Shown one piece after another: positions 5,419 through 26,853 of a DNA stretch of 42,379 nt (positions are counted from its first letter, which is position 1; each line of letters begins with the position of its first letter). The notes beneath the pieces are model-generated. The model searched no databases. It worked only from the letters and a program-made list of their open reading frames with translations, and was not told the DNA's origin. This DNA is from a virus: UHGV virus genome UHGV-1834803. One strand, written 5' to 3'. The translations under genes and the position numbers were made by a program.

Positions 5419-6012
5419 CTAAGCAGCCTTCTTTGATGGTCTTTTTTTCCTGACCACATTCGCAGGATCATACCCTCCCAGACTTTTCATGACGTCCAAA
5501 GGGATCTTGCTTATAGAGTGCCCAGCGTCCTGACAGAATCCTCGAAAAACAACGAGCATACTGCCACCGGGGTTGATGTTTACTTCTACCTGACCCAAAT
5601 TGACGTCAGGCTCGACAAACGCTACGCGGCCACCAGACAGAATAATCGTCTCATTCGCATACTCTGTTGCACGCTCATACCACTTTGTATCGAGGGATTG
5701 AGGAATTAGCATCACTGTTGTAACTCCGCGAGCCTGCTCACGTATAGCAGCATCAATCCAGGGGGAGATTTTGGAGTAGGGTGGATTGAGGAAGGCAATT
5801 GTACCTGGCTGTCCCCATTCAGATTTCAAAGCATCACGCTCAATGCCTATGAAATTAGGCAGCTTTGCGTTGTCCTTGTTGCAGGCAACGTCAACATCAA
5901 ATGTCACTCCAAGATAACGTTGAATGGCAGAAAACAGCCAATCAGGTGTTCTCCAGAGGTCACGAAGAGAGTTGTCGCGCTTTCGCTGTTTGATTTTTTC
6001 GGCTGCAATCAT
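5419..6012 (-). CDS. DNA N6-adenine methyltransferase (phage Dam family)
   Basis: NPPY-type motif (FLNPPYS) and overall layout typical of small phage Dam-like MTases. Confidence 0.65.
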   Translation of the reverse strand: MIAAEKIKQRKRDNSLRDLWRTPDWLFSAIQRYLGVTFDVDVACNKDNAKLPNFIGIERDALKSEWGQPGTIAFLNPPYSKISPWIDAAIREQARGVTTVMLIPQSLDTKWYERATEYANETIILSGGRVAFVEPDVNLGQVEVNINPGGSMLVVFRGFCQDAGHSISKIPLDVMKSLGGYDPANVVRKKRPSKKAA

Positions 6013-20401: not shown

Positions 20402-21046
20402 TTACAGCGCGTCAGTGGGCTTTTTACGCGCTGCGTTTATGCTTATGACGCCAGCTTTTGGACGTGGGTCAACAAGGTTAAGCTCTTCTTCGCTGTGGTA
20501 TTCGAGGTCGAACTCACGTTTTACATGTCTGATGTAGATTGCGGTGAGCAGGCTATCTTTGGTCAGAAAGTGTCCGTAGGATTTGCGGATCACTTCTTCT
20601 ACCTTCTCGATTTTCTCACCACCCATACAGAGATGATTAAACCGGCTGTGTTTCCGCAACATTTCGTCTACTGGGCCTGAGTAAACCTTGTCTACTTTCC
20701 CAAAACGGATGATTTTCCCTGTGTCTGCGGATACGAGGCAAATCAGCTTGTCTGGTGATAAACGATCTCGCCACGTCACACCTGAACGGAGTGTGTTGAA
20801 GTAGGGAGCATCCAATCCGATGATCGGTTTACGAAATGCGAGTAATGGAACGTACCTGATGCAACTGTTTAAATGAAAATTCACACCAGCCTTATCAAGT
20901 TTAATTCTGGTTTCGTAGATCGGGCACTTCGCCGCTATACCGCAGATGTCACAAAGCAACTTCTGCTTATTCAGGTTGGAATTTGATTCGATAGTGTAGG
21001 AGCCGTCTTCAAGACGACGAACCCAGCGCGTGCGTTTTAGATCCAT
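20402..21046 (-). CDS. hypothetical protein (214 aa)
   Basis: Intact ORF next to the origin region. Confidence 0.4.
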   Translation of the reverse strand: MDLKRTRWVRRLEDGSYTIESNSNLNKQKLLCDICGIAAKCPIYETRIKLDKAGVNFHLNSCIRYVPLLAFRKPIIGLDAPYFNTLRSGVTWRDRLSPDKLICLVSADTGKIIRFGKVDKVYSGPVDEMLRKHSRFNHLCMGGEKIEKVEEVIRKSYGHFLTKDSLLTAIYIRHVKREFDLEYHSEEELNLVDPRPKAGVISINAARKKPTDAL

Positions 21047-21133
21047 ATGTCATTTTTCTGTGATTGTTAGCCGAGGCAACGATAACCCACCAGGTGCGCC
21101 GAAGGTAGTAAATGCCTGTTTTAATTATTCACA

Positions 21134-21205
21134 TATCCACAGGATAGATCCTAATAAAGAGATCCATAGATAGATCCTTATATAGATCAAATAAGATCCC
21201 CGATC
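21134..21205. promoter_or_regulatory. DnaA-box-like site (TATCCACA) plus cluster of six GATC sites in 59 bp
   Basis: GATC at 21147, 21161, 21173, 21185, 21195, 21202, embedded in AGATCC repeats. Confidence 0.45.
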
Positions 21206-21245
21206 GCTGTAAGCCGCGCCACGACTGGTCTGAAGTCATGTTCAT

Positions 21246-21347
21246 GTATGCTGTCAGCGGTAATTGATAGTCTGTCAGCGGTTCACCGTATGCTGCCAAC
21301 TGTTTTTGGTATTCTGTCAGCGGCAAATCAAGTATGCTGTCAGCGGT
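21246..21347. repeat. upstream iteron cluster (about 5 copies of TATGCTGTCAGCGGT and variants)
   Basis: Direct repeats read at 21247, 21268, 21289, 21311, 21333. Confidence 0.6.
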
Positions 21348-21367
21348 TGAATGACAAAGGTGTCCAC

Positions 21368-22462
21368 ATGTCCACAAAAAATAAAAAAGGTAAAAATAAC
21401 AAAGAAGTAGAAGATAACATCGACAACTTTGAAGAAGGTTCCCTTGAATTGTACACAGGGGAACTTGTCCCTAATAGCAACAATACAGTCCAACCAATTG
21501 CGTTGATGCGACTGGGGTTGTTCGTCCCCACGCTTAAGGGAACAAAATACAGTAAACGTAACAAGCCAAATGAGATCGATGCTTCAAAGGAGCTTGTCCA
21601 GCTCGAAGTAGCCCGTTCTGAAGGCTATTCCGATATCAAGATAACCGGTCCTCGCCTGGACATGGATCATGATTTCAAAACGTGGGTGGGCGTTGTGCGT
21701 TCGCTGGCAGAATACGGCGAACCTAATGGTCGTGTCGAGTTAAGCATCACGAAATTTGCGAAGTTTTGTGGCTATCCATCGTCACAGATCCGCAAAACAC
21801 TCCGCGACCGGCTTACAAACAGTCTTTTGAAGATCATGCGTACAACTCTGTCTTTCCAGAGAACGTATGAAGAAAAGAACGTCGACGGCTCTAACAAGAT
21901 CTCGCTTCTGATGGTGCACCTCATCAATAGCGTGGACTACAACGAGCAGAAAGATACGGTGGTGTTCTATGCAGAACCGAAGCTGGCCGAACTATATCGC
22001 TTTGACCATAAGGTTCTTTTGCAGTTAAAGGTTATCAATAAGCTACCACGCAAAGAAACAGCACAGGCTCTGTACACCTTCATCGAAAGTCTTCCAACCA
22101 AGCCTGCGCCGGTATCGCTTGCTCGATTGCGTGCGCGACTCAATTTGAGTAGCAGGAATGTCAGCTCGCAGAATCAGACTATACGTAACGGCTTAAAAGC
22201 TCTCCAAGATTTGGGCTATCTCGAATACAGCGAGATTAAGCGTGGGCGGTCGATCTATATCCAGATTCACAGCCGCAATCCAAAACTCAAAGTCGCACCG
22301 CCAAAACCTGAAGACATCGAACCCAAAAAACCAGATGAGAAAGCCGGGGAAATTGATGCCAAACAGAACATTATCAATAAGATAACCGAACTTTCGCAGA
22401 ATTTGACGCCTGAAAATATCAAGATGATTGAGATCCTTTCCAATAGTCTCAAACTGCTTTGA
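21368..22462 (+). CDS. replication initiator protein (Rep, iteron-binding type)
   Basis: Only large plus-strand gene; flanked both sides by iterons; start taken at MSTKNKKGK (21368) rather than the track's 21248. Confidence 0.6.
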   Translation: MSTKNKKGKNNKEVEDNIDNFEEGSLELYTGELVPNSNNTVQPIALMRLGLFVPTLKGTKYSKRNKPNEIDASKELVQLEVARSEGYSDIKITGPRLDMDHDFKTWVGVVRSLAEYGEPNGRVELSITKFAKFCGYPSSQIRKTLRDRLTNSLLKIMRTTLSFQRTYEEKNVDGSNKISLLMVHLINSVDYNEQKDTVVFYAEPKLAELYRFDHKVLLQLKVINKLPRKETAQALYTFIESLPTKPAPVSLARLRARLNLSSRNVSSQNQTIRNGLKALQDLGYLEYSEIKRGRSIYIQIHSRNPKLKVAPPKPEDIEPKKPDEKAGEIDAKQNIINKITELSQNLTPENIKMIEILSNSLKLL

Positions 22463-22994
22463 TATGCTGTCAGCGGTGAAATGTATGCTATCAGCGGCTA
22501 TTTTTCTGAAAAGTATGCTGTGAACGGTTAAAGATATGCTACCAGCGGTATAGTGAGATAAACGTATGCTGTGAGCGGTAAATCATCTATCACCACTCAA
22601 TGCTCTTTTATACCTCCCCAGTGGTTACTAACCTCGAAGAGTGCATTCCATATAGGTTTGCGCTCACTAACATTCTATTCCCATTGCGCTGATTACTTGT
22701 AGTGAAAGGTATTTATTGCCTGCTGCTCCCTGATAGAACGTATGCTGTCAGCGGTGTTTTATTGAGGAATTTTTGTTTGGATATGCTATCAGCGGTAATT
22801 AATGGCATATGTCAGACCTTCGTATGCTGCCAGCGGTAATTTTGTTCTGGTTATACCCATACCGGTACACATTATTCATGCAATGTCTTAAGTATGCTGT
22901 CAGCGGTAAAAAATCGAGTAAAGTATGCTGTGAGCGGTGAGATAGACTCTCGATATGCTATCAGCGGCAGTTGATTGTGTATGCTGTCAGCGGT
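22463..22994. repeat. downstream iteron array (12 copies in two clusters)
   Basis: Copies at 22463, 22484, 22514, 22535, 22565, 22741, 22782, 22823, 22893, 22924, 22954, 22980; irregular spacing. Confidence 0.7.
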
Positions 22995-25779: not shown

Positions 25780-26853
25780 TTACTCTTCTACTGACTCGGT
25801 GGGGTTGTCTTTTGCTCTTCGGTCGTCGATTGCCTGCAAAGCCGCAATGATTTCAGCCAGTGGCTTCTCCCGATACATCTCGACGATCTGCGATTTGGTG
25901 TATTTCTTGTCACCAATTTCAACTCGCCCGCTGGCGTTCTTTGGCAGGTATCCTTCTTCCAGCATGTACTCGACGAGCGATTCGATAACGTCGAGGCCAC
26001 GAGTAGGATCGAAGTAGAATTTCCAGGTGCATTTGCCATACGGTGGTGCAACTTTGTTTTTGATGCATTCTGCGCCTACGTCCTGGCCGATCTTCTCTTT
26101 ACCATCCTTCATCACCGATGCACCAAGACGGATACGTACAGAAGCGTAGAACTTCGGTGAATCTCCACCTGGCGACGTAGTAGGGTCGCCAAACATTACA
26201 CCGATTTTTGTGCGAACCTGATTCAAGAAGATGATGCAGGCGTTGTATTTGCGTGCCCACAAAGCCAGAGTAGGGAAGTTCGCACTCGTCGCACGAGCCA
26301 GTGCCGTATTGTCGTTCATGTTTAGCTGATCTTTGTCTTTGGCAGTGCCTTCAGCCATCTTTTCGAACTTCTCGGCTTTGGAGTTCGGAACCATAGACGC
26401 AAGAGAGTCAGCCACGATACAGATAGGTGCTGATTCGGGGATAAGCTCTTCATCACGAACCAATTTAAGTATTGTGCCGATCAACTCTACAGAGTCTTCG
26501 AAGGTATCTGGCTGCTTGTATACCCACTGACCGTCATCCTCATCTGCGTTCAGGCCATTGGCTACAGCCAGGCCAACGTCAAAACTGTTTTCATGATCGA
26601 GGAATACCGCCAGACCATCTTGTTTCTGTGTGGAGATCATTGCTGCTGTTGCAAGGAACGTTTTCCCTGCACTTGGAGGACCGAATACTTCGACGATACG
26701 ACCACATGGGAAGCCGCCATCGTAACGACCAGAAATAGCTTTGTTTAACGGTGGAAAGCCTGTATCAATCCAATGAGTTACTTTCTGAATTTCGTCGTTG
26801 CTACCGATTTTCTTTTTCAGAGCAAGTGCCAGTGCGGATTTTCCTTTTGCCAT
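25780..26853 (-). CDS. RecA-like recombinase
   Basis: Walker A GPPSAGKT and RecA-like core layout. Confidence 0.8.
   Translation of the reverse strand: MAKGKSALALALKKKIGSNDEIQKVTHWIDTGFPPLNKAISGRYDGGFPCGRIVEVFGPPSAGKTFLATAAMISTQKQDGLAVFLDHENSFDVGLAVANGLNADEDDGQWVYKQPDTFEDSVELIGTILKLVRDEELIPESAPICIVADSLASMVPNSKAEKFEKMAEGTAKDKDQLNMNDNTALARATSANFPTLALWARKYNACIIFLNQVRTKIGVMFGDPTTSPGGDSPKFYASVRIRLGASVMKDGKEKIGQDVGAECIKNKVAPPYGKCTWKFYFDPTRGLDVIESLVEYMLEEGYLPKNASGRVEIGDKKYTKSQIVEMYREKPLAEIIAALQAIDDRRAKDNPTESVEE

Follow-up and report, generated by a model that had tools for sequence, protein, structure and literature searches.

The DNA analysed here (the window) is a stretch of 42,379 bp that belongs to an SSU5-group (SSU5 supergroup) phage-plasmid of E. 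coli. In its origin region it shares 99.4% identity with Escherichia phage PhiR41_1 (circular, 107,998 bp) and 99.6–99.8% with many ~110-kb plasmids of E. coli and Shigella, p09EL50 of the O104:H4 strain 2009EL-2050 being one of them. SSU5-group elements are widespread ~110-kb phage-plasmids in E. coli, Shigella, and Klebsiella, sometimes with resistance genes aboard, and plasmid-typing tools call their replication genes IncFIB. To the left of the origin lies a long minus-strand block with SbcCD-like, ribonucleotide reductase, thymidylate synthase, dihydrofolate reductase, Pol III epsilon, methyltransferase, and RNase H genes; to the right, repA is followed by RecA-like, Pol III alpha, and integrase genes. 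The RecA-like gene (25780–26853) encodes 357 aa and its PhiR41_1 counterpart is annotated as a 779-aa product, a size gap that suggests that one of the two carries an insertion, possibly an intein or a fusion.

The left edge of the origin is formed by two adjacent DnaA boxes on the plus strand (21125–21141, found by pattern search), which overlap by one base. They read TTATTCACA and ATATCCACA, with one mismatch each to TTATCCACA, and align with the tandem boxes of P1 oriR that are annotated as the DnaA binding site in the P1 record. The GATC core follows (21147–21205, not assigned to a strand), with six sites in phased (A/T)AGATCC-type repeats, and is presumed to be both the Dam-methylated core and the unwinding region. 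A G+C-rich spacer (21206–21245, likewise without a strand) that contains GCCGCGCCACG at 21213–21223 separates the GATC repeats from five direct iterons of the GTATGCTGTCAGCGGT type (TGCTGTCAGCGG) on the plus strand at 21246–21350, the counterpart of P1 incC. These iterons start at 21246, 21267, 21288, 21309, and 21332, i.e., with a spacing of 21, 21, 21, and 23 bp. Next to them, a right-hand DnaA-box-like repeat consisting of two copies of TGTCCACA (21361–21376, plus strand) overlaps the repA start codon; it is kept as GGT(A/G)TCCACATG in the clade, and the corresponding side of P1 reads ACTATCCACA.

The repA gene (21368–22462, plus strand) encodes a predicted iteron-binding initiator of 364 aa with a Rep3_N winged-helix domain (Pfam). 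Its start at 21368 is backed by the PhiR41_1 annotation, the alignment with P1, and a conserved AAAGG...ATG. In RefSeq the protein has 404 aa and begins at 21248, a reading that would extend across the iterons, and the 364-aa start was favoured. Directly downstream, an incA-like array of 12 iterons (22465–22993, plus strand) falls into a group of five copies (22465–22578) and a group of seven (22743–22993), which are separated by ~165 bp of non-repeat DNA and have the orientation of the origin iterons. A simple scan of 20950–21450, including the iterons, for sigma-70-like promoters and terminators detected nothing. With DnaA boxes, iterons, repA, and a downstream array all present, the locus bears out the original prediction of a putative origin.

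The RepA of the window is 46% identical to that of P1 over 278 aa (BLASTP, E 3e−86), and a five-way RepA alignment contained 80 invariant columns. The P1 oriR is alignable and colinear with the window origin in the same orientation, running from cTTATCCACATTATCCACtGGATAGATCCaATAA ... AGATCCCtGATCGtTGcAgGCCGCGCCACGtCTGG through five iterons and a DnaA box to repA. The P1 record annotates, in addition to the DnaA site, "Dam methylation sites 1-5 in the region of incC", RepA iterons 10–14, repA, and nine incA iterons, and the GATCs of the window align with these Dam methylation sites 1–5. All traits of the P1/RepFIB type that were tested at the sequence level were found, namely the initiator, the number and spacing of iterons, the DnaA boxes, the GATC core, and the downstream array. 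Judged by these alignments, the window origin and the P1 R replicon are homologous and not merely analogous or alike in appearance.

Density and conservation of the GATC cluster

Recounting placed the GATC starts at 21147, 21161, 21173, 21185, 21195, and 21202 (start-to-start spacing 14, 12, 12, 10, and 7 bp), in agreement with the six sites in 59 bp that had been reported; the cluster covers 21147–21205. The window as a whole contains 187 GATCs (175 expected from shuffles), which amounts to one per 227 bp over its 42,379 bp, and the next tightest run of six sites outside this cluster spans > 300 bp. When 187 sites were placed uniformly, six of them fell within a span of ≤ 59 bp in 0.1% of 20,000 simulations (P ~0.001), and the smallest six-site span obtained in first-order Markov simulations (n = 200) was 94 bp. 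The origin is also the only GATC cluster of this kind in the complete PhiR41_1 genome, where the next six-site span measures 325 bp. Genome-wide avoidance or enrichment of GATC was considered as well and proved unremarkable, the observed/expected ratio of 0.86 in PhiR41_1 being inside the range of other 4-bp palindromes. The GATC stretch (21147–21205) has an A+T content of 66% and contains the 40-bp duplex of lowest stability in the origin, with a nearest-neighbour dG of −41.6 kcal/mol (window mean −53.3 kcal/mol, 99th percentile towards low stability −42.9 kcal/mol).

Conservation among close relatives was examined in 76 viral contigs with RepA 78–100% identical, together with phage records, which amounted to 49 distinct upstream regions; one contig (L074) begins inside repA, so that its origin fell outside the sample. 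The cluster is kept in the 49 regions, with six GATCs at the same positions in nearly all close relatives and five in one. Elsewhere, P1 and P7 as well as the RepFIB-like replicon of RCS47 have five GATCs, Cronobacter phage JK004 has four, and SSU5 has three in 70 bp. In an alignment of 11 sequences, sites 1 and 5 are GATC in 11/11, and the AGATCCCnGATC block and the CCGCGCC spacer are conserved (also in P1 and RCS47), barring SSU5 and, in part, JK004. The iterons, on the other hand, differ fully in sequence between clades (TGCTGTCAGCGG, GTGTGCTGGAGGG, CACTATAGAGAG, and TTGACTGTGCGCGA), so that the GATC core is more conserved than the sites bound by the initiator.

SSU5 itself (L080, JQ965645) has a RepA only 48% identical to that of the window. 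In its origin the phasing of the repeats is retained and several GATCs now read AGAACC or AGACCC. This divergence of RepA and origin implies that replicon variants have been exchanged within the SSU5 supergroup, some of them without the full GATC set. The three GATCs left in SSU5 also mean that some sites are dispensable, and the repeat unit may count beyond its methylation.

For a wider comparison, RepA loci were scanned across species with one genome per species, which yielded 80 loci at 49–56% identity and one Klebsiella locus at 83%, from Pantoea, Kluyvera, Citrobacter, Klebsiella, Enterobacter, Xenorhabdus, Rahnella, Erwinia, and Yersinia pestis. A cluster of 4–7 GATCs, mostly five or six in 46–56 bp, was present in 77 of the 80 and sits 250–730 bp upstream of the conserved RepA core; the other three loci have < 410 bp of upstream sequence, too short to reach the position of the cluster. 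No second cluster of ≥ 5 GATCs was found in the 3-kb flanks of the cross-species loci. Among 71 distinct clusters, the start-to-start spacing peaks sharply at 11 bp (10–13 bp in 246/317) and a terminal 7-bp step is typical, while the flanks are biased to (T/G/A)A-GATC-C(C/A/T). The conjugative IncFIB/IncI plasmid pRM10466-1, for instance, has DnaA boxes and then five GATCs spaced 13, 11, 11, and 11 bp. Taken over the family, the survey confirms the methylated core as a strongly selected component that defines the P1/RepFIB origin type.

Two further observations were made during this survey. Eight Pantoea loci (L101, L102, L105, L113, L115, L117, L119, and L120) carry, besides the main cluster (about −600 to −690), an extra one of four GATCs that lies ~260–330 bp upstream of the RepA core, and the extra cluster may represent GATC-containing iterons or a duplicated core. 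Typical enterobacterial GATC origins also turned up in metagenome-assembled genomes labelled Paenochrobactrum, Rikenellaceae, and Geobacteraceae (L103, L108, and L156), which are most likely mis-binned enterobacterial plasmid contigs.

A local GATC excess that arose by chance, or as a functionless by-product of short tandem duplication, was weighed against these data. Two 18-bp units (21143–21160 and 21169–21186) are 89% identical, and a partial recent duplication is possible. Chance clustering is ruled out by the simulations and by conservation, as the position of the cluster and the number of its sites persist down to 41% RepA identity and in ~80 species, and we regard an origin of the cluster without function as extremely improbable. 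A seventh exact copy of AGATCCATA, the same sequence as at 21160–21168, lies ~100 bp to the left of the cluster (21039–21047) and overlaps the first codons of the divergent ORF 20402–21046; it may be a coincidence, as the sequence from there rightward to the DnaA boxes varies in relatives.

Another possibility is that the phased AGATCC repeats serve mainly as a sequence-specific element for unwinding or protein binding, e.g., of DnaA-ATP or of RepA on single strands, and that their methylation is dispensable. The conserved unit is indeed wider than GATC, as the flanking bias shows, SSU5 retains the periodic repeats with variants other than GATC, duplex stability in the origin is lowest in this region, and the 13-mers of oriC likewise carry GATC and bind DnaA-ATP. 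Against this reading, the tetranucleotide GATC itself is kept 5–6 times in the 71 clusters while flanks and iterons drift, and sites 1 and 5 are invariably GATC in the 11 aligned representatives. For the P1 origin, moreover, both a requirement for methylation and methylation-specific binding of SeqA have reportedly been found. We consider it improbable that methylation is dispensable, and an unwinding role overlaps with control by methylation more than it excludes it.

The encoded methyltransferase and its relation to the origin

The minus-strand gene at 5419–6012 encodes a predicted phage-type N6-adenine DNA methyltransferase of 197 aa (PF05869, TIGR01712, phrog_111). It matches the Pfam family PF05869 "Dam" with an E-value of 5e−38 (130.8 bits, cut-off 28.1) and the equivalog TIGR01712 (phage N-6-adenine-methyltransferase) with 6.5e−33 (113.6 bits, cut-off 97.05), and the catalytic (D/N)PPY motif is present as FLNPPYS (NPPY). 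With both matches above the curated cut-offs and the motif in place, the assignment of this gene to the Dam family, made earlier from the sequence, was sound. The enzyme is 39% identical to Dam-type enzymes of Stx phages (M.EcoVT2Dam type), 31% to HP2 dam, and 31–33% to enzymes of T1-like phages. M.EcoVT2Dam has been described as a Dam homologue, and the Dam enzymes of T1, VT2, and HP1 are specific for GATC. The same specificity is predicted for the enzyme at 5419–6012 from these 31–39% identical relatives. A search of solved structures by sequence gave no match to the methyltransferase. The non-specific adenine methylases Hia5 and Hin1523 were considered as relatives that would undermine the assignment to GATC and were set aside, as they have been tied to Dam, DpnM, and T4 Dam and are not described as PF05869-type.

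In the full PhiR41_1 genome this is the sole methyltransferase found. A possible second one, the "DNA modification methylase" of PhiR41_1 (43063–43731 of the record, 23663–24331 of L166, outside the window), has only a ParB_N domain and was rejected; its annotation is probably wrong. The upstream neighbour of that gene also has a ParB N-terminal domain only.

The original prediction had paired the GATC cluster with this enzyme. In its strict form, such a pairing means that the Dam encoded by the element, rather than that of the host, licenses or times the origin. Several observations are compatible with this: the element encodes a PF05869/TIGR01712 adenine methyltransferase that has no companion in the near-identical full genome, PhiR41_1 has no concentrated GATC target besides the origin (a pac-like GATC cluster, i.e., a P1-style packaging target for the enzyme, was sought across the 108-kb genome and none was found), and P1, with its homologous oriR, carries Dmt, a GATC methylase of an unrelated family (PF02086), which makes two such phage-plasmid lineages with an adenine methylase. 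The distribution of the two parts speaks against it. A RepA of this family is encoded in at least 5000 plasmid records, including 2862 conjugative ones, whereas a homologue of the enzyme occurs in only 785 plasmid records, of which 768 are non-mobilizable and phage-plasmid-sized; the enzyme therefore follows the SSU5 phage backbone and not the replicon. The core of DnaA boxes and five GATCs is also seen in a conjugative IncFIB plasmid, and PF05869 enzymes are encoded in 1981 phage records, the majority of which lack a plasmid origin. The methyltransferase gene is separated from the origin by 15 kb and belongs to a minus-strand operon for DNA metabolism that resembles a lytic DNA-replication/metabolism module, the known hosts are all Enterobacterales, in which a Dam of their own is the rule, and the GATC specificity of the enzyme is itself a prediction from its relatives. 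In P1, the dmt promoter carries an operator of the C1 repressor, and this, together with the unrelated families of Dmt, fits host Dam serving oriR in the lysogen. Control of initiation by the element's own enzyme is accordingly unlikely. The pairing proposed earlier was left unsupported by these comparisons, although they do not refute it, so that one half of the interpretation (methylation control like that of P1 oriR) stands on homology and the other (its link with the element's own enzyme) does not, the replicon occurring mostly without the enzyme.

A looser connection between the two can be envisaged. In lambda, ~50% of Dam sites are methylated, and phage DNA that is made fast can be undermethylated by host Dam, so a phage-borne Dam could matter for the methylation of an incoming origin. 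The phage methyltransferase might then be functionally tied to oriR through the competence of the incoming genome or through a shortened hemimethylated period, the methylases of P1 and the SSU5 group being convergent in that case; we think this improbable. If it were true, one route would be the full methylation of rapidly made or packaged DNA, after which an incoming oriR could fire at once. By the other route, a shorter hemimethylated period after induction would free oriR from SeqA and raise the copy number. The unrelated methylases of P1 (Dmt) and of the SSU5 group (PF05869) would then be a case of convergence driven by the origin.

Proposed control of initiation

Our preferred explanation, which we hold to be probable, is that the GATC cluster forms the core of a P1/RepFIB-type oriR that maintains the SSU5-group phage-plasmid as a low-copy plasmid under the control of Dam and SeqA. 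The homology, the anatomy, the conservation of the sites, their phasing, and the low stability of the duplex were all established computationally, and the requirement for methylation and the sequestration by SeqA are proposed for the window origin from experiments on P1 oriR. In the mechanism that we propose, RepA would bind the five iterons and host DnaA the flanking boxes, and the two proteins would jointly open the A+T-rich, easily melted phased AGATCC repeats. Methylation of the GATC adenines on both strands, by host Dam in the lysogen, would be needed for efficient opening. After passage of the fork, the hemimethylated GATCs, about one helical turn apart, would be bound by SeqA, and immediate re-initiation would be blocked until Dam remethylates them. 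The incA-like iterons downstream would titrate or handcuff RepA and in this way set the copy number. The PF05869 methyltransferase of the element most likely acts in lytic DNA synthesis, where host Dam would lag behind, and would be accessory to the control of the origin, not required for it.

Several elements of this scheme have precedents. SeqA binds pairs of hemimethylated sites and prefers sites on one face of the helix. A phasing of ~11 bp (one turn) places successive GATCs on one helix face, as SeqA needs for hemimethylated pairs. Opening of the P1 origin is begun by DnaA and greatly aided by RepA. That P1 oriR is controlled by Dam and SeqA has been known from the late 1980s and 1990s onward, origins of this type being inactive when unmethylated and sequestered when hemimethylated. 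The P1 origin reportedly requires methylation; Abeles, Brendler and Austin are said to have described a two-level control of P1 oriR by methylation in 1993, and Brendler, Abeles and Austin, in 1995, SeqA as a methylation-specific binder of the P1 origin core. A role for adenine methylation has reportedly also been found in the REPI replicon. The suggestion that initiation is controlled by methylation as in P1 oriR hence gains support, at the level of sequence, from the homology of RepA, the base-by-base alignment of the origins, and the annotation of Dam sites in P1. Counted against this explanation were the loss of several GATCs in SSU5 and the outcome of the simple scan, which gave no sigma-70-like promoter in the iterons for a P1-like autoregulation of repA. 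The papers searched contained no experiment on the origin of this SSU5-group clade, and nothing that links SSU5, pHCM2, or SSU5-type phage-plasmids with GATC or with methylation of the origin.

The cluster belongs to a known origin type and no new principle is involved, the control of P1 oriR by Dam and SeqA being long established. What the analysis adds is that the maintenance origin of SSU5-group phage-plasmids is placed in the P1/RepFIB family. This placement predicts that SSU5-group elements depend on host Dam and SeqA, and it should be useful for the construction of mini-replicons, for questions of IncFIB incompatibility, for copy-number mutants, and for the reading of 6mA data at the origin locus.

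Comparison with known replicons

The closest well-described counterparts are the oriR of P1 and P7. They share with the window origin the tandem DnaA boxes, the phased GATC repeats ending in AGATCCCnGATCG, and the GCCGCGCCACG spacer, followed in identical order by the iterons, a right-hand DnaA box, repA, and an iteron array downstream. As in P1, there are five iterons upstream of repA at 21-bp spacing (those of P1 are 19-bp iterons spaced 21, 21, 21, and 22 bp), and the element is a phage-plasmid that encodes an adenine methyltransferase. The differences concern the details of each part. Six GATCs are present here and five in P1, in which the second repeat reads GGTCC, and the iteron sequence is TGCTGTCAGCGG here but GTGTGCTGGAGGG in P1. 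The downstream array has 12 iterons in one orientation and two groups, whereas P1 and P7 have nine, which lie in two orientations in the P7 record, and the array is not followed by parAB as it is in P1. RepA is 78 aa longer than that of P1, chiefly by a C-terminal extension; a charged extension of ~55 aa (residues 310–364) is absent from P1 RepA. The methyltransferases belong to different families, PF05869 here and a PF02086/PF00145 fusion in P1 Dmt, and the phage backbone is SSU5-like, of the siphovirus type, and unrelated to that of P1.

The RepFIB/IncFIB replicons of F-type and other enterobacterial plasmids, including REPI of pColV-K30 and that of Y. pestis pMT1, have a RepA of the same family (~50% identity) and the same core of DnaA boxes and 5–6 GATCs phased at ~11 bp. 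Their iteron sequences vary, as does the distance from the GATC core to repA (250 to 730 bp), and they are found mostly on conjugative or large non-phage plasmids that lack the PF05869 enzyme.

The chromosomal origins E. coli oriC and Vibrio cholerae ori2 are not homologous to the window origin but resemble it in having dense GATCs at the region of unwinding or initiator binding and in the involvement of DnaA. In both, the hemimethylated origin is sequestered by SeqA, as is proposed for the window origin by homology to P1; for oriC, methylation is not strictly required. In ori2 the initiator-binding sites themselves contain the GATCs, and the binding of RctB needs their methylation, whereas the GATCs of the window are located outside the iterons, in the presumed unwinding region.
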